From assembly GCA_964579635.1 (NCBI GenBank), contig CAZOFV010000002.1:1371-65370 (forward strand): DNA of 64,000 nucleotides, written 5' to 3'. Both the position numbers and the translations under genes were made by a program. Below, piece after piece: positions 3,762-22,975 of this stretch. The notes under the pieces were generated by a model. That model did not search any database and was not told the DNA's origin. It saw only the letters and a list, made by a program, of their open reading frames with translations. Position 1 is the stretch's first letter. The number at the start of each line of letters is the position of its first letter. The DNA is from an uncultured Candidatus Saccharibacteria bacterium. Lineage in GTDB: Bacteria > Patescibacteriota > Minisyncoccia > Phycocordibacterales > VMEP01.

Positions 3762-4445
3762 TTATATTTCTAAAAATCCATCTACTAAAAGTTTATAGGC
3801 GTTTCCCTCATCAAGTCCGCGCGACATTGGATAAAACAACTCATCACGAGAAATATCTTTTATGGAAAGTGAATGAGAACAACGAACATCATTACTTGCA
3901 ATATCAAGAGATGGAATTGCGTCAACGCGAGCTTCTTCAGACAAAATCAAAAATGAAGCTGATTCCTCCCCTTTTGCCTCTATGTCTTTACCCATCGCGA
4001 TATCACTTCTGTAAATTACGTGTGCCTTATCTTTAAGAACTCCACGCACGTCAATTTTTGAAATAGTGTGTGATGCCATGTGATAAACCTTGTGATATAC
4101 ATCAACCTCCGATTCACCCACTAAATCATAAGAACTGGTTATCGAAGCTTTAGCACCACGACCGGCTAAAATAATGTGAATATCATTTTTACTAACAACC
4201 TGATTCTTAGAAGATTCAACATATTCAAATGTCGCCCCTTCGCCAACATAAACAATAAGAAGTTTTGATTGAGATAAATTATTTTCTAATTTTGTTGTTT
4301 CGTTTGATGCCACTTCAATTACTTTCCCACCCTTTGCGACGATAGATAAAAACTCCTCCGAAAAAGGAGAGGCTATTTTGAGTCCGTATTTAAAAGCGTT
4401 CGGCTCAACATAAGTATTTAAAATTTCTTTAACGTTATTTTTCAT
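3762..4445 (-). CDS. sufD: Fe-S cluster assembly protein SufD (short form)
   Basis: 227 aa SufB/D-family C-terminal beta-helix region, directly downstream of sufB. Confidence 0.75.
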   Translation of the reverse strand: MKNNVKEILNTYVEPNAFKYGLKIASPFSEEFLSIVAKGGKVIEVASNETTKLENNLSQSKLLIVYVGEGATFEYVESSKNQVVSKNDIHIILAGRGAKASITSSYDLVGESEVDVYHKVYHMASHTISKIDVRGVLKDKAHVIYRSDIAMGKDIEAKGEESASFLILSEEARVDAIPSLDIASNDVRCSHSLSIKDISRDELFYPMSRGLDEGNAYKLLVDGFLEI

Positions 4446-4450
4446 ATTGC

Positions 4451-5800
4451 TTAACCAACACTTCCCTCCATCTCAAGCTCAATCAACTTATTAAGCTCAA
4501 TTGCGTATTCAAGTGGCATGGCCTTAACGATAGGCTCCAAAAAACCGCCAACAATAAGGCGTTCTGCTTCTCTCTCAGAAAAACCGCGTGAACGTAGATA
4601 AAACACCTCATCGTCCCCTAGTCGTCCAACTTTTGCTTCGTGAGAAATATTAACCCTCTTATTATCGTTCTTCGTTGATGGGTATGTATTAGAAACTGAT
4701 TTATCATCCAAAATTAATGCATCACAAACAACAGATGACACCGCGCCTGTTGCGCGCTTCCCTATTTGCACAAACCCGCGATAAGTAGAGATACCGCCAT
4801 CTTTAGAAACTGATTTAGAACGAATCGTAGAAACTGTATCCCTCGCCAAGTGTAGCGCTTTTGCACCTGTGTCTTGATTCTGCCCCTCACCGGCAAGTAC
4901 GATTCCTAAACTATCTGCTTTTGCTCTTGCTCCCAAAAGAACAGACGATGGATAAAGCATCGTCACACATGAACCCATATTGCCGTTGACCCACTGCATT
5001 TCTCCGTCTTCATATACCATCGCTTTTTTGGTGTTTAGGTTGTAGGTGTTGCGTGACCAATTCTCAATACTTAAATATTTTACTTTCGCCCCTTTCATCA
5101 CAAAAACTTCCACACAGCCAGCATGAAGCGATGACGATGTGTATCGTGGAGCAGAACATCCTTCGATGTATTCAATCTCTGAACCTTCGTCGGCGATAAT
5201 TAATGTGTGTTCAAACTGGCCAGCAGATGGGCGGTTCATTCTAAAATACGCTTGCAAAGGCAAGCCAACTTTCACCCCTTTGGGAACATAAATAAAAGTG
5301 CCACCGCTCCAAACGGCACCGTGGAGCATGGTGAACTTATGATCAGAAGATGGCACGCAGTCGGTCATAAAATATTTTTCAACAAGCTCTGGATATTTTT
5401 GCACAGCCACATCCATATTCTCAAAAATAACCCCCTTATCAGCAAGTGATTTTTGAAGATTGTGATAAACAATCCCTGAATCATATTGAGCACCAACCCC
5501 ACCTAAATATTCGCGTTCAGCTTTTGGAATTCCGAGCTTTTCAAAAGTGTCAGTTATTTCTTTAGGGAGTTCTTTCCAGTCAGTAGTTTCCTCAACAGAA
5601 GGGTCAATGTAATAAACAAGATCGTCTAAATTGAGCCCTGATAGCGATGGACCCCAATTTGGGATAAGTGTCTCTTTCCACAAAGAAAAGGCCTCTAGGC
5701 GCTTTTTTAGCATCCAAGCGGGCTCATTCTTACTCTCCGAAATATGGCGCACAAGCGCTTCAGAAAGTCCTTTATTAACCATCTTTTCATCTATTGACAT
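4451..5800 (-). CDS. sufB: Fe-S cluster assembly protein SufB
   Basis: 449 aa, characteristic SufB conservation throughout. First gene of the operon. Confidence 0.9.
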   Translation of the reverse strand: MSIDEKMVNKGLSEALVRHISESKNEPAWMLKKRLEAFSLWKETLIPNWGPSLSGLNLDDLVYYIDPSVEETTDWKELPKEITDTFEKLGIPKAEREYLGGVGAQYDSGIVYHNLQKSLADKGVIFENMDVAVQKYPELVEKYFMTDCVPSSDHKFTMLHGAVWSGGTFIYVPKGVKVGLPLQAYFRMNRPSAGQFEHTLIIADEGSEIEYIEGCSAPRYTSSSLHAGCVEVFVMKGAKVKYLSIENWSRNTYNLNTKKAMVYEDGEMQWVNGNMGSCVTMLYPSSVLLGARAKADSLGIVLAGEGQNQDTGAKALHLARDTVSTIRSKSVSKDGGISTYRGFVQIGKRATGAVSSVVCDALILDDKSVSNTYPSTKNDNKRVNISHEAKVGRLGDDEVFYLRSRGFSEREAERLIVGGFLEPIVKAMPLEYAIELNKLIELEMEGSVG

Positions 5801-5876
5801 TGCGACAAATTATATTGTATTATCACGCCAGTTGCAAATTTGATTTAACCCAAACAAAAAGAGGAGGAGAGCTGTC

Positions 5877-6119
5877 ATGAATACTGACTGTGCCAAAGAA
5901 AATGTTTTGAAGGACAACGAGGAATTCGTCGCCTTTCTTCACGAAAACGCGCGTAAAGAAAAAATTCCCGCCACCTGCGACAAGTTGTGGCTCGCCAATG
6001 TTTGGCGGAACAACAGGGGTCTTTTCGCAAACCTCTTCGTTCTGTACACAGGGAAAGCCGTTCTTGTCCCGCAAATCGACTCGTTCTTCCAGCAAGCCGC
6101 CGAGTCGTACAAGGGCTAG
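5877..6119 (+). CDS. GC-rich orphan small protein, paralog 1 (80 aa)
   Basis: SD AAGAGGAGGA before the ATG. Shares the ATCDK and C-terminal FFQQAAESYKG motifs with the downstream paralog. Followed by a hairpin terminator. Confidence 0.6.
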   Translation: MNTDCAKENVLKDNEEFVAFLHENARKEKIPATCDKLWLANVWRNNRGLFANLFVLYTGKAVLVPQIDSFFQQAAESYKG

Positions 6120-6135
6120 CCTTTCCCTTCAACAA

Positions 6136-6165
6136 AAAGTCCCGCATTGTGCGGGGCTTTTCTAA
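6136..6165 (+). terminator. Rho-independent terminator of paralog 1
   Basis: CCCGCA-ttg-TGCGGG hairpin followed by GCTTTTCT. Identical to the copy after paralog 2. Confidence 0.6.
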
Positions 6166-6243
6166 TATTAACGTTTCCAAAAAACGTGATAGTATCACTG
6201 TAGCCGTAACTTCAATCAAATAAACTTAGAAGGAAAACATCAA

Positions 6244-6489
6244 ATGAATACCGCTAGTGTTGCCCCAACAAATGTACTGGAAGACAACAAAGAATTCGTC
6301 GCCTATCTTCACGCGCACTCCAGGGGAAGAAATGTTCCCGCAACCTGCGACAAGTCGTCATTATCCGATTATTGGCAAGGCAATAGACGCTTTTTCGTGG
6401 AAACATTCACAAGCTGTACCGGCAAGGCCGTCAACATCAAGAACATTCGCGAATTCTTCCAGCAAGCCGCCGAGTCGTACAAGGGCTAG
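6244..6489 (+). CDS. GC-rich orphan small protein, paralog 2 (81 aa)
   Basis: SD AGAAGGAAAA before the ATG. About 40% identity to paralog 1, with the last 11 codons and 3' UTR identical. A candidate promoter TTAACG-N16-TAGTAT overlaps the palindrome GTGATAGTATCAC (6186-6198). Confidence 0.6.
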   Translation: MNTASVAPTNVLEDNKEFVAYLHAHSRGRNVPATCDKSSLSDYWQGNRRFFVETFTSCTGKAVNIKNIREFFQQAAESYKG

Positions 6490-6505
6490 CCTTTCCCTTC
6501 AACAA

Positions 6506-13760: not shown

Positions 13761-16700
13761 TTAATTACGGCGTCTTTTTTTAAGTTCAACATCAAGGGCC
13801 AATCCACGTAGGTAATTCAACATAACCGTAAAGGAAGCTGGAGCGTTTGGCGCCTTAACATCCTCGCCCTTGATAATAGAATCGAACGTCTGTGAACGAC
13901 CGACGATATCGTCTGATTTAACTGTAAGCATTTCACGAAGTGTGTGTGATGCTCCGTATCCTTCAAGTGCCCACACTTCCATTTCACCAAAACGCTGACC
14001 TCCACCTTGAGCTTTACCTCCCAATGGCTGTTGGGTAATGAGCGAGTACGGTCCGATGGAGCGCATGTGAATCTTATCTTCCACCATGTGGTGAAGCTTC
14101 ATGATATACATGTATCCGAGTGCGATTTCCTGATCAAACGAATCACCTGTGCGACCATCATAAAGTTTAACTTTACCAGTCTCTGAAAAACCAGCTTTCT
14201 TAAGTTCGTCACGAATTTCCTGGTCTGTTGCACCTTGGAAAGGAGGAACTATTGCCTGATAATTTAGTGTGTTTGCTGCAAGACCCATGTGAAGTTCCAA
14301 AATCTGACCTAGGTTCATACGAGAAGGAACTCCAAGTGGTGTCAAAATAACATCAATAGGTGTGCCGTCTTCCATGTATGGCATATCCTGCTCTGGCAAG
14401 ATAAGAGAAATAACACCTTTGTTTCCGTGGCGACCTGCTAGTTTATCTCCAACAGAGATGTTTCTAAGCTGTGCGACTTCAATGTGAATTCTTTTAATGA
14501 TTCCACTATCAAGTGAATCACCACTATCACGAGAGAAAACCTTTACACCAACAATACGTCCACGCTTGCCGTGTTCCATACGAAGTGAAGTGTCTTTAAC
14601 ATCACGTGCTTTTTCACCGAAGATAGAACGCAAAAGTCTTTCTTCTGGAGTAAGTTCTGATTCACCTTTTGGAGTAATCTTTCCAACCAAAATATCGTTA
14701 GGGCGAACTTCTGCACCAATACGGATAATTCCATCAATATCAAGATCTTTCAATTTTGCTTCACCAACGTTTGGAATATCACAAGTTGTGACCTCGGGCC
14801 CAAGCTTTGTATCACGAACATTCACAACGAACTCTTCAATGTGGATACTTGTGAACTTGCTGTCTTTGACCAATCTTTCTGAAAGGATAATAGCGTCTTC
14901 GTAGTTCGAACCGTCCCAAACCATAAAGCCAACCAAGACGTTTTGACCTAGTGCTACTTGTCCATGATCAGACGATGATGTGTCAGCCAATATTTCACCC
15001 TTCTTAACACGCTGTCCAACTGAGACTACTGGACGCTGATGGAAAACGCTAAAGTCGTTTGTTCTTGAGTAGTTAACTAAAGTATATTCTTTTTCTTTTC
15101 CAGATTTTGTTCCATCTACTTTAACCTTCTTTGCATCAACATAAGTAACAGTTCCCTCTTCTTCTGCAAGAACTAAACGACCTGTGTAATAAGCAACGGA
15201 GTGTTCCATACCTGTAGCAACAAGTGGAGCTTCTGGGATAATACAAGGTGTTGCCTGCTTCTGCATGTTAGAACCCATGAGTGCACGACCGGCGTCATCG
15301 TGTTCCAAGAAAGGAATAAGTGAAGTTGCAACAGAGAAAGGTTGTGTTGTTGAAACGTCGATATAATCAACGTCGTTTTTATCAACCATACCAGGTTCTG
15401 TTTTAATACGAGCTTCTACTTTCTTTTCTGTAATGTTCCCGTCAGCGTCATAATGAATACCAGCATGAGCAATAACACTTCCTTCTTCTTCAAGAGCGTT
15501 TAGGTAAACAATTTCTTTTGTAATCTTTCCGTTCTTAACCTTAACGTAAGGAGTTTCAATAATGCCGAAATTATTAATTCGAGCGTGTGTCGACAACTGC
15601 AAAATAAGACCGATGTTTTGGCCTTCTGGTGTATGGATAGGACAAACACGACCGTAGTGGGAAGTGTGCACGTCACGAACTTCAAGACCAGCTCTTTCAC
15701 GAGTAAGACCTCCTGGCCCAAGTGCTGAAAGTCTTCGTAAGTGTTCTATTTCATCCAAAACGTTACCCTGACTCATGAATTGAGAAAGTTGGTTTGTGGT
15801 GAAGAATTCTTTTATACGAGCTTGCAGTGGACGTTGATTAACTATCTGAATTGGAAGAGTTGTCTCGGCATCAATAGTAGACATTCTGTCTTGGATATTT
15901 CTCTTCATTTGAGCCATACCAACACGAATCTTTGCTTGAAGCATTTCTCCAACATATCGAACACGTCTTAATCCTAAGTGATCAATATCGTCAGCTTCAG
16001 ATCCTGGAGTGTTATTTAAGTTAGTGATGTGTTCAACAATAAGAACAACATCTTCAAGTGAAAGTGTGCGACGAGCAAGCGCAACTTCTTTCATGTCCAA
16101 ATCAAATCTCTGGTTAAAACGAAAACGTCCAACAGGAGAAAGATCATATCTCTCTTCGCTAAAAATTGACGAGATAAATTCACGAGCATTATCTGCTGTT
16201 GCAAGATCGCCATCACGAAGACGTTTATAAATTTCTATGTATGAATCATCAAGGGTTTTAGCTGGGTCCTTCTCAAGAAGAGCTGTAACCATTTCCTGCA
16301 TTTCTTTACTAAACTTATTTATGATCTCTTTGTCGCTCTTTGTTCCAAAAACACGTAGTAATGATGCAACTGGGAACTTCCTCTTTCTGTCGATACGAAC
16401 AAAGATACCTTCAGCATCAGATTCTATTTCAATCCAAACACCACGTGATGGGATTATTTTTGCACCAAAAAAACGCTTGCCTTTAATATCTTGGTCGTTA
16501 AAGAAAACGCCGAAGCTTCTAGCAAGCTGAGGAACAATAACACGCTCGACACCGTTAATGATGAAGGTGCCGTGAGAAGTCATAAGAGGAAAATCTGCCA
16601 TGAAGATTTCCTGCTCTTTAACAGTGTTAAAAGTCTTGTTCTTTAGTTTGATTGTTGCACGAAGAGGAGCTTCGTAAGAAAGCTTATTTGCCTTAGCAAA

Positions 16701-16979
16701 ATATTCATTATGTTTTGGCTCACTTAAGAAAAAAGAAGTGAACTCAAGATCAAACTTTTTATCAGAATAATCTTTTATTGGAGAGAATTCCTTAAATATT
16801 TCTTTTAGACCTTTTTCTAAAAGCCATTTATACGATGCGACCTGATTTTCAATCAAGTCTGGCATTTCAGCCAATGGTTTTTTCCATGCGGAAAAATGTT
16901 TCTGCTCACGACCGGCACCACTCAATCTTCCCGAAGACCTAGGAAGAATTGCATCCTGGACACGCAATTGTTTTGCCAT
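13761..16979 (-). CDS. rpoB: DNA-directed RNA polymerase beta subunit
   Basis: 1072 aa with conserved beta-subunit blocks. Immediately upstream of rpoC. Confidence 0.95.
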   Translation of the reverse strand: MAKQLRVQDAILPRSSGRLSGAGREQKHFSAWKKPLAEMPDLIENQVASYKWLLEKGLKEIFKEFSPIKDYSDKKFDLEFTSFFLSEPKHNEYFAKANKLSYEAPLRATIKLKNKTFNTVKEQEIFMADFPLMTSHGTFIINGVERVIVPQLARSFGVFFNDQDIKGKRFFGAKIIPSRGVWIEIESDAEGIFVRIDRKRKFPVASLLRVFGTKSDKEIINKFSKEMQEMVTALLEKDPAKTLDDSYIEIYKRLRDGDLATADNAREFISSIFSEERYDLSPVGRFRFNQRFDLDMKEVALARRTLSLEDVVLIVEHITNLNNTPGSEADDIDHLGLRRVRYVGEMLQAKIRVGMAQMKRNIQDRMSTIDAETTLPIQIVNQRPLQARIKEFFTTNQLSQFMSQGNVLDEIEHLRRLSALGPGGLTRERAGLEVRDVHTSHYGRVCPIHTPEGQNIGLILQLSTHARINNFGIIETPYVKVKNGKITKEIVYLNALEEEGSVIAHAGIHYDADGNITEKKVEARIKTEPGMVDKNDVDYIDVSTTQPFSVATSLIPFLEHDDAGRALMGSNMQKQATPCIIPEAPLVATGMEHSVAYYTGRLVLAEEEGTVTYVDAKKVKVDGTKSGKEKEYTLVNYSRTNDFSVFHQRPVVSVGQRVKKGEILADTSSSDHGQVALGQNVLVGFMVWDGSNYEDAIILSERLVKDSKFTSIHIEEFVVNVRDTKLGPEVTTCDIPNVGEAKLKDLDIDGIIRIGAEVRPNDILVGKITPKGESELTPEERLLRSIFGEKARDVKDTSLRMEHGKRGRIVGVKVFSRDSGDSLDSGIIKRIHIEVAQLRNISVGDKLAGRHGNKGVISLILPEQDMPYMEDGTPIDVILTPLGVPSRMNLGQILELHMGLAANTLNYQAIVPPFQGATDQEIRDELKKAGFSETGKVKLYDGRTGDSFDQEIALGYMYIMKLHHMVEDKIHMRSIGPYSLITQQPLGGKAQGGGQRFGEMEVWALEGYGASHTLREMLTVKSDDIVGRSQTFDSIIKGEDVKAPNAPASFTVMLNYLRGLALDVELKKRRRN

Positions 16980-17253
16980 ATTATTTTTTATCTCGTAAAG
17001 CGACCAACACTCTCATTACAGCGTAGGTCACTGCGCGAAACGGTTACGCAAAAAGAAAATGAAAGCAAGGAAAATCCCGCCCCTTTTCTAGGACACCTGA
17101 TAATTTTCTTCAATTTTCATCGAGAAGAGATTCCCGAATCTTCGCACTCCCAGGGGCGTAACTCAATCAAAAACTGGTTAAAGACAGTATACCTGAAGCA
17201 AAAACACTGTCAAACTTTTCTAATTTACAAAGAGCCACCGCCTTTTAGGGGTT

Positions 17254-17886
17254 TTATTCCCCTTTCTTCCATTTCTCAATATTAGCTTGATGACCTGAAA
17301 GCAAGACTTTTGGCACTTTATAATTTTTCCCTTTATATTTTAAAATTTCTGGACGAGTATAAACTTCGCTTGATGAAATTCTATTCTCTTCAACAGAATC
17401 GAAAGTGTTGAGCACTCCTTTGATCTGACGAGAAACAGTGTCTATCAAAACCATCGCTGGCAATTCTCCGCCAGTGAGAACGTAATCCCCAATTGAAACT
17501 TCTTCTGCTTTTAGAATTTTTTTCACACGGCCATCAATTCCTTCATATCGTCCTGACACTAAAATTATTTCTTTATTTTTTTTCAAAAGATTTCGAGCGT
17601 ATTCATTGGTCAATTTTTTACCAGCTGGTGAAAAAATAATCACCTTAGTTTTTTTCTTCCCACGAGCTTTGCCAATAGCGGTCAAAATAGGTTGCGCTTC
17701 CATGACCATTCCAGGACCACCACCATATGGTCGCCCATCTACTCTCCCCCATTTATTCTCCGTGTAATCACGAGGGTTATAAAACTTAACCGATATTTTC
17801 TTATCTGTTATGGCGCGCCCAATAATCGACTCTTTTAAATACGAGTCGAACATGCTTGGGAAAAGTGTTATTACTTGAAATTTCAT
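17254..17886 (-). CDS. trmD: tRNA (guanine37-N1)-methyltransferase TrmD
   Basis: SPOUT/TrmD conservation (ITLFP, GRYEGID). Confidence 0.9.
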   Translation of the reverse strand: MKFQVITLFPSMFDSYLKESIIGRAITDKKISVKFYNPRDYTENKWGRVDGRPYGGGPGMVMEAQPILTAIGKARGKKKTKVIIFSPAGKKLTNEYARNLLKKNKEIILVSGRYEGIDGRVKKILKAEEVSIGDYVLTGGELPAMVLIDTVSRQIKGVLNTFDSVEENRISSSEVYTRPEILKYKGKNYKVPKVLLSGHQANIEKWKKGE

Positions 17887-17910
17887 ATGCTTGTTCTATC
17901 ACGATAACAT

Positions 17911-17945
17911 AAAAGAAAAAAGCCCCGCGTTCGCAGGACTTTTGT
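17911..17945 (-). terminator. Rho-independent terminator downstream of the GC-rich orphan at 17953-18180
   Basis: On the minus strand, a CCTGCG-aa-CGCGGG hairpin followed by TTTTTTCTTTT. Confidence 0.5.
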
Positions 17946-17952
17946 CGCATGA

Positions 17953-18180
17953 CTAGTCATCTGGGGAGACAACACATCCATGGGCCGAATGCCTGCCCAG
18001 TGGGTGCTTCTCTACCAATTCGCCGAGGGTTTCGAAATAATCTTTTGACACTTGCGAATTTTCCGTCCTCTTTGCAAGAGGCTTGATTTCTCCATCTTCC
18101 TCGATACTTCTAAGCGGATCATCATGCTTGCGCCCCGGGGTTGCTTCGTAAATATCGGCCATCAAGGTCATTCGCGCCAT
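17953..18180 (-). CDS. GC-rich orphan small protein (75 aa) sitting where rimM usually lies
   Basis: SD AAAAGGAGAAAA before the ATG (18180). GC-rich. Flanked by hairpin terminators. No recognisable domain. Confidence 0.5.
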   Translation of the reverse strand: MARMTLMADIYEATPGRKHDDPLRSIEEDGEIKPLAKRTENSQVSKDYFETLGELVEKHPLGRHSAHGCVVSPDD

Positions 18181-18225
18181 CACGTTTTCTCCTTTTCGTT
18201 GATCTAAACTATTAACATCATAAAC

Positions 18226-18257
18226 AAAAACCGCCCTATATCAAGGGCGTTTTTTGT
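18226..18257. terminator. Bidirectional terminator after the KH-domain gene
   Basis: AAAAACCGCCCT-atatcaa-GGGCGTTTTTTG. Confidence 0.6.
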
Positions 18258-18275
18258 TTCTTCCTAATCTCCTAA

Positions 18276-18605
18276 TTACAAATCTTTAATGTCCTCCATC
18301 ACCGACTCAACAGTATTTAGAGTAACCCCGCTGTCGTATGGTCTTGGCGCTCCGCCTGCAGGTTCGTTTATCTTCAAATTAACACGTGCGTTATTTTTCA
18401 TTCCAACAACACGAAGAAGTGTTCTTATTGCCTTTGCGGTATTTCCTTTGCGACCGATAATTTTACCCATATCTGCTGGATTCAAATCAAGAGTCAAAAG
18501 CACACCCATCTGATCAATCACTCTTCCTATCTTCACATCGTCTGGAAAATCAACCAACGCTTTTACAACATATTCTAAAAATTCCTTATCTTTCTCCATA
18601 TTCAT
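18276..18605 (-). CDS. KH-domain RNA-binding protein (YlqC/UPF0109-like)
   Basis: GxxG KH loop (IGRKGNTAKAIR). Canonical position between rpsP and trmD. Confidence 0.8.
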   Translation of the reverse strand: MNMEKDKEFLEYVVKALVDFPDDVKIGRVIDQMGVLLTLDLNPADMGKIIGRKGNTAKAIRTLLRVVGMKNNARVNLKINEPAGGAPRPYDSGVTLNTVESVMEDIKDL

Positions 18606-18707
18606 TTCAGTAAATTATTTTTAAAAAGTAGTTCAATTAAAATGCTCTACTAAATCAATTGTAAAACTTAGATTGTCTTGGGTCAATGAACATTGTTTAA
18701 ACAAGTC

Positions 18708-18752
18708 ACAATAAAAAAGACCCTGCATCTCTGTATAAGCAGATGCAGGGTC
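18708..18752 (-). terminator. Rho-independent terminator of the 190-aa GC-rich orphan
   Basis: GACCCTGCATCT...AGATGCAGGGTC hairpin with a T-run on the minus strand. Confidence 0.55.
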
Positions 18753-18792
18753 CGTCTCCTGCCTGAAATTCTAAACTCTCAAGACCCGAGTG

Positions 18793-19365
18793 CTAATTTG
18801 CGCGCAACGCAGCAGGATCATTGTCGTCCCAGAAGTCGAGACCGAGCCAGTCGCTGAACCAGTACCACCTGCTGCCACTCCGGCCGAGGTAACGAACGTA
18901 CAGACTATCACCGGGGTGGCGGTAGATCGTGCCCCAGAAGAACACATACTTGCCTTTCCATTCCTCGGGAATGAGGTGCGGATGAGCGAGCAGGTAGTCA
19001 AGGATATTCGCGTTTAAGACAGGCTTGCTGACGAGTTCCTTACGGAGCTTGTTGCCTTCCATCATTTTGCCGTTCTGCTGTCCTTCGGCAAGAAAAAGTT
19101 CGATCTGTGAGGCATCAAACTTGAACTGTCCGCCCTTCTGATGCTCTTCGACTTTCCAGCCATCAGGAACGAAAGGGGCAGCATCGCAGTCGATGGTGTG
19201 TTCTACCTGCGTGATAGTGGCGTAGCCGAGCCGCACTTGTCGCACCCTGGCGAGATTACCCCCAGTTGCAAGCCAGTCGAGATCGGCGACATCGGGAATG
19301 CCGTTGCGAAGAAGAGCTTGTTTGATTTTGTAGGCAAGTCCAACATCGAGTGTGATATCACTCAT
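18793..19365 (-). CDS. GC-rich orphan protein (190 aa from the ATG at 19365; the ORF track starts at an upstream TTG)
   Basis: SD AAAGGAG lies 6 nt before the ATG. About 55% GC. W-rich C-terminus (SRWYWFSDWLGLDFWDD). Inserted between rpsP and the KH gene. No recognisable domain. Confidence 0.55.
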   Translation of the reverse strand: MSDITLDVGLAYKIKQALLRNGIPDVADLDWLATGGNLARVRQVRLGYATITQVEHTIDCDAAPFVPDGWKVEEHQKGGQFKFDASQIELFLAEGQQNGKMMEGNKLRKELVSKPVLNANILDYLLAHPHLIPEEWKGKYVFFWGTIYRHPGDSLYVRYLGRSGSRWYWFSDWLGLDFWDDNDPAALRAN

Positions 19366-19430
19366 TAGAGTCTCCTTTGCGACATCGAGTCTGTGAGTAG
19401 ACAAATAGTCGCTTTAATGCCAGCGGGCTT

Positions 19431-19500
19431 TCTTCGGTGCGAAGGTTTGCCATAGCAGAGAATGGCCTAGTGGTTAAAGCCGCTTTCTGCTATGGCAAAC
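19431..19500 (-). promoter_or_regulatory. Structured 5' leader or operator of the 190-aa orphan
   Basis: A perfect 15-bp inverted repeat, GTTTGCCATAGCAGA (19445-19459) and TCTGCTATGGCAAAC (19486-19500), separated by 26 nt. An adjacent CTTCG-gtg-CGAAG hairpin lies 70-135 nt upstream of the start. Confidence 0.4.
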
Positions 19501-19577
19501 ATAAGCTAAGAATCAAAGAACTATATTGGTATAAAAACATGTGTTTGTAATAAAGTCAAACATACATAATATTAAAA

Positions 19578-19613
19578 ACAAAAAAGCTGTCCTTTCTAGG
19601 ACAGCTTTTTTGA
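19578..19613. terminator. Bidirectional terminator after rpsP
   Basis: AGCTGTCCT-ttct-AGGACAGCT hairpin flanked by an A-run and a T-run. Confidence 0.65.
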
Positions 19614-19628
19614 GATAGAAAATTCAAA

Positions 19629-20108
19629 TTATGCAGCTGGTGCTTCTTCTGCCGGAGCTTCAACAACCACTTCTGCTTGCGCTGGGGTTTCTGCTACTAC
19701 CTCCGCCTGTGCTTCAACTGGAGCCTCTTCCACTACCGGTACTTCAGCTGGAATTTCTTCAGGAGCAGGAGTTGCGACTGGTGCTGGTGTAGGGGCTGCG
19801 GGAGCTTCTGCTTTAGCTGGTTCGTCTTTTTTGATAGGACTTTTCTTAGGCAAAACGTTTCTTTTCTTTCCATCAATAATTTTTTTCTCAACTAGGAAAT
19901 TATGCATTGTGTCTGAAGGCAAAGCTCCATGTGACATCCAATGCAAAACGCGATCAGCCTTAACAATGAAGTTGCCGAGCTTAGGTTCATAAGAACCGAT
20001 GACCTCAACGAAATTACCCGTCTTTGGGCTTTCGCGATGATCAACAACAACCACGCGGAAGTGCGGGCTGTTCTTTCGTCCTATTCTTTGTAACCTAATT
20101 TTTAACAT
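19629..20108 (-). CDS. rpsP: 30S ribosomal protein S16 with an Ala/Pro/Glu-rich C-terminal tail
   Basis: N-terminus MLKIRLQRIGRKNSPHFRVVV. The ORF track starts 12 codons earlier. The C-terminal low-complexity region (APAAPTPAPVATPAPEE...) explains the local GC rise. Confidence 0.85.
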   Translation of the reverse strand: MLKIRLQRIGRKNSPHFRVVVVDHRESPKTGNFVEVIGSYEPKLGNFIVKADRVLHWMSHGALPSDTMHNFLVEKKIIDGKKRNVLPKKSPIKKDEPAKAEAPAAPTPAPVATPAPEEIPAEVPVVEEAPVEAQAEVVAETPAQAEVVVEAPAEEAPAA

Positions 20109-20165
20109 GCAGGCAATACTAATAGAAATGGCCCGATAGGTCAAGCTTATTTTTTTAGCTTTTGT

Positions 20166-20241
20166 CTTTAAAAACGCGCATAAAACTTTGCTAAGTTTTT
20201 GCTATGCTCGTGCCGTCGCACTGCGCAATGTTTTTAAAAAC
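20166..20241. promoter_or_regulatory. Conserved structured element, copy 1 (upstream of rpsP)
   Basis: Outer inverted repeat CTTTAAAAAC/GTTTTTAAAAAC, core AAAACTTTGCTAAGTTTTT, inner hairpin GTGC-cgtc-GCAC, then TGCGCAA. Sits just upstream of a predicted rpsP promoter TTGACC-N17-TAGTAT. Confidence 0.45.
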
Positions 20242-20353
20242 AAAAGCAGGGACTAGAAAAGACAAGAATATCCTATCCAAGAGCACCCCCCTTAAAGGTT
20301 CTAATCACCCAATCTAACCAATTTTGGCCACTTTTGTGTTATGATTTGAACCC

Positions 20354-22339
20354 ATGAAAAAGCATACCGATAAACATCATAAAGTAGAGCACAAAAAGGC
20401 TCCTGTGAAAGAACACGCCCAAAAGCACCACGAACATACCGTTGAAGGCACTATCACTGTCAGTTTCAAAGGTATTGGTTTTGTTCGCATTGAAGGAGAA
20501 GATGAATCAATAGAAGTCTCTGCTAATTCACTAAATACTGCGCTTCACGGCGACCGAGTTAAGGTTTCCGTTCACGGCAAAGGACGCAACGGACAACCAC
20601 AAGGTGAAGTTATTGAAATCCTACTTAGGGCAAGATCTGGCTTTGCTGGCACCATAGAAAAAGACCGCGACGTCTATTACCTTATTCCACAAGACCAGCG
20701 TGTTTATGTTGACCTTGTTATTCCAAAAGATGATTTAGGAGAAGCAAAAGAAGGAGATAAGGTTTTTGCCGCATTCATTGAGTGGACCGATCCAAAGAAA
20801 AATCCTGTTGGTAAGGTTCTCCGTGTTTTGGGTAGACCAGGAGAACACGAGGCAGAAATGGTTGCTATCGTTTTGGAATCTGGTTTTGATACTGGTTTTC
20901 CAAAAGAAGTTGAGGACGAATCAAAAAAGCTTGAAGAAAAAGGTATTACTGAAGATGATTTAAAAGGTCGTCGTGATTTTCGCAACACTACAACATTCAC
21001 CATTGACCCAGAAGACGCCAAAGACTTTGATGACGCCATCTCAATTCAAGATTTAGGTAACAATGTTTATGAAATCGGTGTGCATATTGCTGATGTTTCC
21101 CATTATGTTCGCCCAGGAACCGAAATTGATAAAGAAGCGATGAAACGCACAACTTCTATATACCTCGTCGACCGCACAATTCCAATGCTTCCGGAAGGAC
21201 TTTCTAATGGATTATGTAGTTTAAATGCAAACGAAGACAAACTGACTTTTAGCGCCGTTTTTAAAATTGATATGCAGGGGAAAATATCTGACTATTGGTT
21301 TGGTCGCTCTGTTATAAAATCAAATAAACGCTTTACCTACGAAAATGCCCAGGAAACTATCGATCGTGGTTCTGGAGAATATTTTGAAGAACTCGTAATT
21401 TTAAATAAGATTGCCAAAAAATTAAAACAAAAACGCTTTGACGAAGGTGCCATTTCTCTTGAACAAGAAGAAGTGCGTTTTAAGTTGGATGAAACCGGGC
21501 GCCCTGTATCTATTTATAAAAAAGTTCGTGGTGATACTCATAAACTCGTTGAGGAATTTATGCTACTTGCCAACCGCGAGGTTGCCTCATTTGTCGCCAA
21601 AAAACACGAAAATGAAGATGGTGTTTTCGTTTACCGTATTCACGACGAACCAAATACAGAGCGTATCCAAAACCTCGCAATATTCGTTAAAAGCTTGGGC
21701 TATGACCTAAAAATGACCGATGGGAAAACGACACCAAGAGATATAAATAATCTTCTAGAAAAACTTGAAGGCACAAGTGTAAAAGACATGATTCAGACCG
21801 CCGTTGTCCGCTCAATGGCAAAAGCAATTTACACAACTCAAAACATTGGCCACTTTGGCTTAGGTTTTGAGTTCTATACACATTTCACATCTCCTATCCG
21901 TCGTTATCCAGACACCATGGTCCACAGACTTTTAGCACGATACTTAAACAACGAAAAAATAGACGCAAAAGAATGGAAGTTCTACGAAAGAATGTCTACC
22001 TTTTCATCACAACGAGAAAAAGAAGCATCTGATGCTGAGCGTGGCTCAATCAAATATAAACAAGTGGAATATATGTCAGAACGCATTGGGCAGATTTTTG
22101 ACGGCGTAATTTCTGGAGTTACTGAGTGGGGTTTCTACGTTGAAGAAAAAGAAACGAAATGTGAGGGTATGGTTCCGCTACGAACATTAAACGACGACTT
22201 CTATAATTTTGAAGAAAAACGCTACCGCTTGGTTGGAGAAAAAACAAAAAAAATATATTCTCTCGGAGATAAAATAAAATTCAAAGTTGAAAAAACAGAC
22301 CTTGGAAGAAAAACTATTGATTACTCTTTAGTAAGTTAG
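20354..22339 (+). CDS. rnr: Ribonuclease R (RNB family 3'-5' exoribonuclease)
   Basis: RNB catalytic domain conservation, C-terminal S1 domain, His/Lys-rich N-terminus. Confidence 0.88.
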   Translation: MKKHTDKHHKVEHKKAPVKEHAQKHHEHTVEGTITVSFKGIGFVRIEGEDESIEVSANSLNTALHGDRVKVSVHGKGRNGQPQGEVIEILLRARSGFAGTIEKDRDVYYLIPQDQRVYVDLVIPKDDLGEAKEGDKVFAAFIEWTDPKKNPVGKVLRVLGRPGEHEAEMVAIVLESGFDTGFPKEVEDESKKLEEKGITEDDLKGRRDFRNTTTFTIDPEDAKDFDDAISIQDLGNNVYEIGVHIADVSHYVRPGTEIDKEAMKRTTSIYLVDRTIPMLPEGLSNGLCSLNANEDKLTFSAVFKIDMQGKISDYWFGRSVIKSNKRFTYENAQETIDRGSGEYFEELVILNKIAKKLKQKRFDEGAISLEQEEVRFKLDETGRPVSIYKKVRGDTHKLVEEFMLLANREVASFVAKKHENEDGVFVYRIHDEPNTERIQNLAIFVKSLGYDLKMTDGKTTPRDINNLLEKLEGTSVKDMIQTAVVRSMAKAIYTTQNIGHFGLGFEFYTHFTSPIRRYPDTMVHRLLARYLNNEKIDAKEWKFYERMSTFSSQREKEASDAERGSIKYKQVEYMSERIGQIFDGVISGVTEWGFYVEEKETKCEGMVPLRTLNDDFYNFEEKRYRLVGEKTKKIYSLGDKIKFKVEKTDLGRKTIDYSLVS

Positions 22340-22401: not shown

Positions 22402-22626
22402 ATGGATGTTATCGCACCTTCAGGAGATGGATTTTGCCCAGCGTGTCACGGGGATGCCATTTATTTCAAACAACTCGACGAAGAAAGGATGGGTAAAGAT
22501 ATTCAGATAACCCGTCTTTATCACTGTGTTTGTGGTTATAAAGCGAAAGTTGTAATCAATGGCCGAAACATACTCTCTTGCAAGAACCCATCTCCGCAAG
22601 AAATAGAGTCTCTGCACGCTTCGTAA
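22402..22626 (+). CDS. GC-rich orphan zinc-ribbon protein (74 aa)
   Basis: SD TAGGAGAAAG before the ATG. CPAC...CVCG cysteine pairs. Shares a terminator with the convergent orphan. Confidence 0.5.
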   Translation: MDVIAPSGDGFCPACHGDAIYFKQLDEERMGKDIQITRLYHCVCGYKAKVVINGRNILSCKNPSPQEIESLHAS

Positions 22627-22684: not shown

Positions 22685-22975
22685 CTAAATTGTGAACGGA
22701 GTATTCATCATTTCTATGAATTCTTTTTCTCCGACCTTAGGAACATCATCTCCCGCATGAAGATACTGCCTGCCACACTTACGACAAGCCGCAGTGCGAT
22801 AAAGGAATGCCCCGTTAAACCAGCCGGAAACTTCGCGCACAACATCCCCACCGCAATTTTCCGCCTTGCACTTATTGCCAAGGAAGGGAGTATTTTCTTC
22901 CCGGAATACCTTCCTGGCCTTAAAAAACCTGGCCAAGTTTTCCTCAGACAGCTCAGGAAAATTTCTATTGCCCAT
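22685..22975 (-). CDS. GC-rich orphan zinc-ribbon protein (96 aa)
   Basis: SD GGAGGG before the ATG. CKAENC...CRKC cysteine pairs. GC-rich. Confidence 0.5.
   Translation of the reverse strand: MGNRNFPELSEENLARFFKARKVFREENTPFLGNKCKAENCGGDVVREVSGWFNGAFLYRTAACRKCGRQYLHAGDDVPKVGEKEFIEMMNTPFTI

Follow-up and report, generated by a model that had tools for sequence, protein, structure and literature searches.

The rpsP-khpA-trmD cluster considered here lies on the minus strand of a 64,000-nucleotide stretch of contig CAZOFV010000002.1 from an uncultured Candidatus Saccharibacteria bacterium, and this whole stretch is referred to below as the window. Read along the minus strand the order is rpsP, an open reading frame (ORF) of 190 amino acids (aa), khpA, an ORF of 75 aa and trmD, followed by rpoB and rpoC, with a terminator-like hairpin followed by a run of T ending each gene of the cluster (Table 1). 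A preliminary description of this DNA reported that gene order together with the two GC-rich ORFs, and both are real on the evidence of the window's ORFs, Pfam matches and GC counts, with the 190-aa ORF at 53% GC compared to 39% for the window and a 300-nt segment over the 75-aa ORF reaching 49%. Taken as a whole, the locus is probably a Patescibacteria S16 cluster that has received a solo target gene of a diversity-generating retroelement (DGR), together with a leader RNA of proposed cis-regulatory function.

Although at first described as an orphan, the 190-aa protein has many relatives. At E<=0.01 there are 1313 homologues, the best 120 of which are 55-84% identical to it, and a scan that took a single genome for each species found relatives in 372 genomes, which places it in a very large family of DGR variable proteins. 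The named sources of these homologues are Patescibacteria only. An exhaustive profile search gave 4253 cluster representatives of the family at 50% clustering and marked out residues ~52-188 as a separable domain, which is present in 3-4 copies in some longer proteins, with P0242 (481 aa) and P0243 (804 aa) carrying 3-4 copies in tandem. No meaningful model match for the protein was found in Pfam, NCBIfam or PHROG. The idea that the ORF is part of an IS200/IS605-type transposon was rejected, as there is no transposase match in Pfam, PHROGs or NCBIfam. The AlphaFold2 model of the protein has a pLDDT (predicted local distance difference test score) of 89, and residues 88-189 follow the order beta-alpha-alpha-beta-beta-beta-beta, which we take to resemble a C-type-lectin domain, with no match confirming that fold in the searches that were run. 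Genes of the family have a GC content of 46-63% across loci of 35-60% GC and are above their own locus nearly everywhere, which fits horizontal spread, and the high GC could reflect either such spread or a compositional constraint. Four viral contigs from IMG/VR (L150-L153) encode relatives that correspond to the variable domain alone, covering residues ~31-189, with three of them starting at residue 55.

The assignment of the family to DGRs comes from its neighbourhoods. Amongst 80 loci of the family that were fetched for analysis of neighbourhoods and repeats, 27 have an ORF of ~340 aa lying ~1.3 kb downstream of the 190-aa homologue, and the three of these ORFs that were tested are reverse transcriptases (RT) by their match to Pfam RVT_1 (~1e-23). 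In ~30 loci a copy of the 3' end of the gene, ~123 nt long, is found between the gene and the ~340-aa ORF, the two forming a pair of variable region (VR) and template repeat (TR) whose homology stops where the ORF of the target gene ends. The mismatches within such pairs are almost solely at adenines of the template, as for all 17 in L065, all 18 in L007 and all 20 in each of L010 and L043. L065 has a complete DGR with a bAvd gene on the opposite strand (PF22296, E=1.5e-11), whilst about half of the fetched loci have no TR within 1.6 kb. It is the adenine-only mismatches and the downstream RT, with bAvd in addition in L065, that identify the 190-aa family as DGR variable (target) proteins. In the complete cassettes an adenine-mutagenic RT acting with Avd would copy the TR into the C-terminal VR. 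The hairpin that follows the 190-aa gene of the window has the look of an intrinsic terminator and is kept in L081, a sister strain that is 93% identical to the window in khpA and trmD DNA, and a role as a DGR target-recognition element is possible for it.

The copy in the window is predicted to be a solo target. A tblastn search of the 64-kb window with the RTs of related loci gave noise only and no TR was found within the window, and it is because both are lacking within 64 kb that the copy is called either a target, solo or remote, or else a relic. It is apparent, however, that the gene is not decaying, its scaffold being under purifying selection. Between the window and L081 the ratio of nonsynonymous to synonymous substitution rates (dN/dS) for codons 1-148, the scaffold, is 0.07, with a dS of 0.43 and a dN of 0.03, and the dS of khpA in the same comparison is close to this at 0.375. 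In the VR dN is 0.41 as against 0.03 in the scaffold, and the differences fall in 20 of 35 template-adenine columns compared to 19 of 110 others (Fisher p=1.3e-5), the template-adenine columns having been set from the template repeats of the family and not from a TR cognate to the window. As the divergence is mostly at template adenines, the VR of the window would have been diversified in the recent past or may still be served in trans.

Upstream of the 190-aa gene lies a leader which, going by its covariation, is a real and conserved RNA structure under selection for pairing. The preliminary description noted a structured leader of ~135 nt with a perfect 15-bp inverted repeat. The repeat is there and is stem P1, its arms (19445-19459 and 19486-19500) pairing perfectly over 15 bp and extended arms of 22 nt being 86% complementary, and the leader is indeed long, structured and covarying, although its length from the inferred start is ~160 nt. 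Folding of the 221 nt that precede the ORF gives z = -4.3 against shuffles. The P1 hairpin is seen again 80-140 nt ahead of homologues that lie in unrelated genomic contexts, with both arms changing together, as in L022 (tcgccacagctttgag paired with ttcaaagctgtggcga) and L053 (gtggtcatagccaaaagg paired with ttttttggctatgactac). In a plain MAFFT alignment of 36 leaders, fitted to no model, RNAalifold found 19 pairs in P1, 16 of them with compensatory changes. Leaders folded one by one give P1, a short P2, the conserved AGCCCGCUGGCA and a two-tier P3 that stops just short of the Shine-Dalgarno.

A covariance model of the leader, R1, was built from seven loci with the window left out and has 134 positions and 40 pairs. 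It matches the window leader over its full length from 19523 to 19378 at 91.8 bits (E=1.4e-22), which is its sole sense-strand match in the window, and a sense-strand match lies directly upstream of the homologue in ~57 of 81 loci, with the antisense matches being weak echoes of the P1 palindrome. In the alignment of the 42 best matches, which is fitted to R1 whereas the result for P1 from the unfitted alignment is independent of it, 93.5% of cells are paired and double changes occur at 31 of the 40 pairs. Double-change cells number 177, compared to 44 ± 5.5 in shuffles (0 of 500 reach the observed value) and 13-33 in slid controls (~5-fold lower). In helices 2 and 3 each of the 5 pairs changes on both sides, as do 9 of the 10 pairs in helices 5 and 6. 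There are 127 G.U or U.G cells as against 44 A.C or C.A cells, and two wobble positions in P1 are nearly fixed; together, the excess of G.U and the fixed wobbles point to folding of the sense strand and not to a double-stranded DNA site.

A predicted promoter of the form TTGACA-N16-18-TATAAT precedes the leader in 40 of the 42 leader loci, its -10 element ending at a median of 8 nt before the start of the model, and from this placement the motif AGUUCUUUGAU would be the 5' end of a transcript that presumably starts from this promoter. Several other identities for the inverted repeat were considered and dropped. That it is an intrinsic terminator, which the preliminary description had raised for a unit on the plus strand upstream, fails since no T-run follows it on either strand, nor is it listed in the terminator scan. 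A tRNA fragment or integration site, suggested by the likeness of the apical loop to a reversed tRNA D-arm, was rejected as well, since ARAGORN and Rfam give no tRNA there, the loop is unconserved in other loci and tRNA genes are rarely adjacent. A likeness of CCAUAGC...GCUAUGG in P1 to helices II and III of 5S rRNA was dropped too, with no 5S family found at Rfam E<=10.

Table 1. Coordinates of the features discussed in the text; positions are those of the window unless a locus is named.
Feature	Position	Strand	Remarks
rpsP (ribosomal protein S16)	19629..20102	-	Pfam Ribosomal_S16 E=7.6e-15; upstream flank of insertion
Terminator-like hairpin after rpsP	19579..19612	-	15-bp stem then T-run
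Predicted promoter, sigma70-type	19531..19559	-	TTGACT, 17 nt, TTTTAT; position homologous with that in L081 and 40/42 loci
Structured leader RNA, 146 nt	19378..19523	-	5' motif AGUUCUUUGAU, P1, P2, AGCCCGCUGGCA, P3
P1, long bulged hairpin (inverted repeat)	19445..19500	-	
P2, short hairpin	19432..19444	-	CUUCG CAC CGAAG
Conserved AGCCCGCUGGCA, P2b or single-stranded	19418..19429	-	near-invariant in alignments; little covariation
P3, two-tier hairpin	19379..19412	-	GCGAC..GUCU-loop-AGAC..GUCGC
Shine-Dalgarno AAGGAG	19372-19377	-	P3 ends 1 nt before
190-aa gene, DGR variable-protein family, solo copy	18793..19365	-	
Variable region (VR), ~codons 148-188	18800..18925	-	aligns to ~123-nt VR/TR repeats of relatives
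Hairpin + T-run 3' of 190-aa gene	18719..18752	-	12-bp perfect stem, 40 nt past stop codon
khpA (KH-domain RNA-binding protein)	18276..18605	-	Pfam KH_KhpA-B E=2.3e-20; downstream flank of insertion
75-aa ORF	17953..18180	-	own ribosome-binding site; own terminator 17918-17943
trmD	17254..17886	-	Pfam tRNA_m1G_MT E=3.6e-44
Complete DGR of L065	3986-6499 (in L065)		target 3986-4606; TR 4926-5047; bAvd ~5100-5450, opposite strand; RT 5468-6499
Leader loci with a gene outside the 190-aa family			L082, L086-L088, L094, L099, L110, L125, L127, L128, L140; metagenome

Genes outside the 190-aa family also carry the leader. Metagenome contigs were scanned for an exact 20-mer from P1 and 68 loci were obtained, of which 60 have an R1 match over positions 1-134 and two (L082 and L112) match in P1 only. 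Seven of the 68 were judged to be chance, six of them having no R1 match, and in the five inspected the 20-mer lay in non-hairpin sequence. A member of the 190-aa family is found downstream in 42 of the 68, whilst ~17 have other ORFs of 140-240 aa, which form at least 6 groups without a Pfam match, the one match amongst these ORFs being a weak hit to TrkA_C far below threshold. Of the 11 loci of this kind listed in Table 1, R1 matches 10 over the entire leader, at 43-71 bits, and L082 in P1 only. Comparison of the 190-aa family with the other leader proteins by hhalign, the latter as single sequences, gave probabilities of <2%. Several of these other proteins have aromatic-rich C-termini ending in ...AS or ...SR that recall a variable region.

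A further locus, L083, has the leader in front of a different protein that has its own TR, with all 22 mismatches at adenines, and its own RT. In the DNA fetched for the other non-family loci no TR or RT was found, save for an RT ~3.4 kb away on the opposite strand in L086. One contig of 693 kb has two leader-bearing genes of different families (L088 and L128), and several leader-bearing genes in one genome do occur, as seen in L009 and L011. Positions 3835-5463 of L009 are made up of two tandem units, each of leader plus gene, and L011 has a second copy of the leader (5-118) 3.9 kb upstream. The leader is absent from the four viral contigs that encode relatives of the variable domain.

The preliminary description thought of the leader as a riboswitch-like element, and a known family of that sort is not what was found. 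At gathering score Rfam 15 gives one tRNA in the window and nothing at the leader; at E<=10 it gives nothing relevant over 17800-20400, nor over the leader of L019, the best representative, so that no match to a known riboswitch, ribosomal-protein leader, RT-1 to RT-19 motif or other Rfam family was obtained. Six DGR cassette loci searched against Rfam 15 at E<=0.01 contain tRNAs only. The literature offered one DGR-linked RNA motif, RT-10, located between the TR and RT in the DGR of Bordetella phage BPP-1 (PMC5737381). In the two accounts of DGRs in the candidate phyla radiation (CPR) that were consulted, the words 'promoter' and 'stem-loop' occur 0 times (PMC5758913), as do 'promoter' and 'non-coding' (PMC8144416). 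The leader RNA has apparently not been described before, although it is possible that it is mentioned by Paul et al. 2017.

With regard to how these genes came to lie within the cluster, the gene order of L081 is that of the window, with rpsP, the 190-aa gene, khpA, a small ORF and trmD. Other relatives do not. L154-L156, which are 83-86% identical in khpA and trmD DNA, have a ~150-nt spacer between rpsP and khpA with another terminator in it and no small ORF, and the rpsP-khpA spacer is empty in L157 and L158 too. The more distant L065 (~58-66% identity) carries its complete DGR of target, TR, avd and RT in that same spacer. The window protein is 49% identical to the L065 target compared to 68-69% to copies in unrelated contexts. 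On the simplest reading of these sequences the gene would have been gained in an ancestor that the window and L081 share and inserted independently in the lineage of L065, although ancient presence followed by repeated loss may be an alternative history. The inserted block runs from just past the stop codon of rpsP to just before the -35 element of khpA (~19620 to ~18715). These comparisons support the view that both ORFs are probably insertions into a conserved cluster. The preliminary description had anticipated that relatives might lack the two ORFs, in which case the insertion would be recent and of no functional relevance. The empty spacers of L154-L156 bear out the first part of this, but not the second, as purifying selection means that the larger inserted unit is not functionally irrelevant.

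The preliminary description measured the cluster against the canonical order rpsP-KH-rimM-trmD-rplS and saw the absence of rimM as an anomaly. As in that canonical rpsP-(ylqC/khpA)-rimM-trmD-rplS operon, the window has rpsP, khpA and trmD in the same order and on the same strand; unlike it, the window and all the Paceibacteria relatives examined are without rimM and rplS and have rpoB after trmD. The khpA neighbourhoods of relatives at 58-93% DNA identity all read rpsP-khpA-trmD, usually with rpoB next, and in none of them was a gene for RimM or a PRC-barrel protein, or rplS, found. It has been reported that rimM is nearly absent in the CPR (PMC12641178). Given this report and the phylum-wide absence in relatives, the missing rimM is normal for the phylum and not a peculiarity of the window locus, and the canonical operon is not the yardstick for this phylum. 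In the Paceibacteria relatives L154-L160 it is rpoB and rpoC, and not rplS, that follow trmD (window 13761-17886, minus strand).

Neither GC-rich ORF matches a RimM, PRC-barrel or any other model of Pfam or NCBIfam at E<=1. The 75-aa ORF, put forward earlier as a minimal RimM analogue, is not one that can be upheld, being too short, unconserved, without a match and scrambled in L081. Confined to the window and two near relatives, it has a single close counterpart in the homology search, of 92% identity, and is absent from L065 and L154-L158. Its counterpart in L081 is 106 aa long and 52% identical over the first 42 residues, a 93-nt indel between the two taking out a Cys-rich segment, whilst the flanks (upstream terminator, promoter, ribosome-binding site and downstream terminator) are near-identical. 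The 75-aa ORF appears from this to be lineage-specific and either fast-evolving or decaying. L160 has a 122-aa ORF without a Pfam match in its khpA-trmD spacer. Other lineage-specific ORFs are also seen about the cluster, with a 215-aa ORF and a glyoxalase gene in L158 and a 435-aa ORF before rpsP in L157. Such ORFs give the spacers of rpsP-khpA-trmD-rpoB the appearance of an insertion hot spot. For annotation, 'missing rimM' together with GC-rich ORFs is to be read as the expected state of the phylum plus a mobile module and not as a rewired ribosome-maturation operon, and once the mobile DGR-target module is recognised the 'anomaly' of the cluster is ordinary for the phylum.

Two small foreign units would have been inserted into the spacers of the rpsP-khpA-trmD cluster, a Patescibacteria form of the S16 cluster that never had rimM, the larger being a self-contained expression module of promoter, 146-nt leader, 190-aa gene and terminator. 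The leader would act as a cis-acting regulatory RNA, in which a factor acting in trans, be it protein or small ligand, may read the bulge and wobble signature of P1 along with AGCCCGCUGGCA and so determine how well the downstream gene is translated or how stable its mRNA is. Both the regulatory role and the existence of such a partner are inferred. The more specific suggestion, that the leader represents a regulatory RNA of a new class, be it riboswitch or protein-binding leader, and defines a regulon of small proteins in Patescibacteria, is a tentative one and rather less than an even bet; if it is true, then the expression of variable proteins, part of them hypermutated by DGRs, is tied to a cellular or host-derived signal.

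A number of points weigh against the proposed reading. The counts of covariation for P2 and P3 rest on the model-fitted alignment, and the promoter and 5' end are themselves predictions. No terminator or attenuator was found in the leader, with P3 leaving the Shine-Dalgarno out, nor was a convincing alternative or switching fold found for it. Pairing of the 3' arm of P1 with the Shine-Dalgarno region comes to -11.1 kcal/mol as against -9.4 kcal/mol for shuffled sequence, is generic and shows no locus-specific covariation; a like test of the 5' motif against the Shine-Dalgarno also gave generic complementarity without a locus-specific signal. With respect to the solo target, the search for a TR and RT covers the 64-kb window, and the VR of the window has one codon more than that of L081 and most template repeats, which hints at some drift after DGR activity ended.

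Amongst the other explanations the one to be taken most seriously, although we think it unlikely, is that the leader is a passive structural 5' untranslated region (UTR) that protects from nucleases or provides an RNase III site and senses no signal. P1 is a long, near-perfect helix of 20-24 bp and as such a typical RNase III substrate, the lack of a switching fold or attenuator would be expected of such a UTR, and a promoter near to consensus makes post-transcriptional control plausible. However, stabilisers do not need a conserved sequence, and here the sequence of the stem, the two G.U pairs, the bulge and the unpaired AGCCCGCUGGCA are all conserved; P1 also begins ~24 nt from the predicted 5' end, and four helices exceed what protection needs. 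It is much more doubtful that the leader is a DGR-specific cis element, marking the gene for retrohoming or recruiting RT and Avd and having no part in control of expression. It does lie upstream of DGR targets in most loci, including the different target with its own TR and RT in L083, yet it is ~600 nt from the variable region, and the elements known to serve target recognition in DGRs are found at that region's 3' end. Solo genes without a nearby RT keep the leader, it precedes ~17 ORFs nearly all of which have no TR or RT in the locus, and the viral contigs with variable-domain relatives do not have it. The precedent for an RNA element of this sort is RT-10 in phage BPP-1 (PMC5737381).

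We regard as similarly improbable the view that the inverted repeat acts as DNA, be it an operator palindrome for a dimeric repressor, a cruciform or a single-stranded recombination site of the integron attC kind that mobilises ORF cassettes. It would account for arms that keep their sequence and not just their pairing, for an element that precedes many unrelated ORFs in the manner of a cassette and for a module that is found in varied contexts and twice in the rpsP-khpA spacer, and G.T pairs are tolerated in folded single-stranded DNA. Yet the conservation reaches upstream as far as the promoter and 5' motif, so that the hairpin is not the boundary of a cassette, P2 and P3 covary too, and a double-stranded operator is at odds with fixed G.U wobbles alongside freely occurring compensatory changes. 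The score of R1 at 148 bits on the sense strand compared to 43 on the antisense strand argues the same way, although it is a weak point, R1 having itself been made from sense-strand sequences. Neither an integrase nor a transposase was identified beside the module, no search for an integrase having been made and most flanks being unannotated, and tRNA genes are rarely adjacent. The hairpin furthermore sits inside the leader, the modules have terminators of their own, and they are single and scattered save for the two in L009, none of which is as for attC. Least credible of all, and hardly to be entertained, is the first interpretation of the locus, by which the two orphans replace rimM, with the 75-aa protein as the RimM analogue and the leader as a ribosome-related riboswitch or operator. 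The sole point in its favour is that the 75-aa ORF sits where other phyla have rimM. It is opposed by the near absence of rimM across the CPR (PMC12641178), by relatives at several distances in which trmD comes straight after khpA and both ORFs are missing, by a 75-aa ORF without a family match that has a single close homologue and is scrambled in L081, and by a 190-aa gene that is a DGR target, its family being far from ribosomal genes in 79 of 80 loci.

DGRs are especially abundant in Patescibacteria, with small, domain-less targets of no known function. The 190-aa family has much in common with the DGR targets of the CPR (placed in 'clade 2' by Roux et al. 2021, and given as a CPR set with B3 architecture by Wu et al. 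2018), which are small proteins with a C-terminal VR, and its relatives have, as CPR DGRs do, a cognate TR with adenine-specific mismatches, avd and RT just downstream. CPR targets are described as small and without a recognisable domain or transmembrane segment (PMC8144416), a description that the 190-aa protein fits, and cassettes lying beside ribosomal-protein genes, at times interleaved with them, have been reported for CPR DGRs (PMC5758913). Where the window copy differs from the CPR cassettes is in having no TR, avd or RT within 64 kb, and it also differs from both accounts (PMC5758913, PMC8144416) in the conserved promoter and leader upstream of the target.

For the leader itself, RT-10 (Weinberg et al. 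2017, PMC5737381) is alike in being a conserved structured RNA that is physically linked to a DGR. RT-10, however, sits between TR and RT and is thought to serve priming, whereas the window leader is upstream of the target gene, persists without an RT and is found in front of ORFs that are not linked to DGRs. The leader also resembles orphan cis-regulatory 5' UTR motifs, riboswitch candidates and protein-binding leaders such as those of ribosomal-protein operons, with which it shares several helices between the promoter and Shine-Dalgarno, covariation in the stems, conserved unpaired nucleotides and an occurrence before several unrelated genes, two of them on one contig. It differs from all of these in that no expression platform, either a terminator or a sequestered Shine-Dalgarno, was found and the downstream genes have no known function from which a signal might be guessed. 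The sharing of one leader by DGR targets and other small proteins suggests a common regulon. As a real and widespread motif, the leader RNA is the part of the locus most worth attention. It is short enough for regulatory testing and may show when variable proteins are made, and R1, which already picks out at least 120 loci, provides a search handle that finds leader-bearing genes, including solo targets that are missed by DGR finders centred on the RT.

Some further features of the window are of lesser concern. The S16 protein has a low-complexity C-terminal tail of ~90 aa (19629-19900, minus strand) rich in Ala, Pro, Glu and Val, and as S16 ranges in length from 100 to 149 aa amongst relatives this tail is variable. 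The hairpin after rpsP is also found in L081, whilst L155 has a different terminator there. Further along the window, in a region of ~45% GC between an SMC-like gene and that for RNase R, are two small Cys-rich ORFs that are zinc-ribbon-like (22402-22626, plus strand, and 22685-22975, minus strand); at the position of this pair L154-L156 have an ORF of 76-97 aa.

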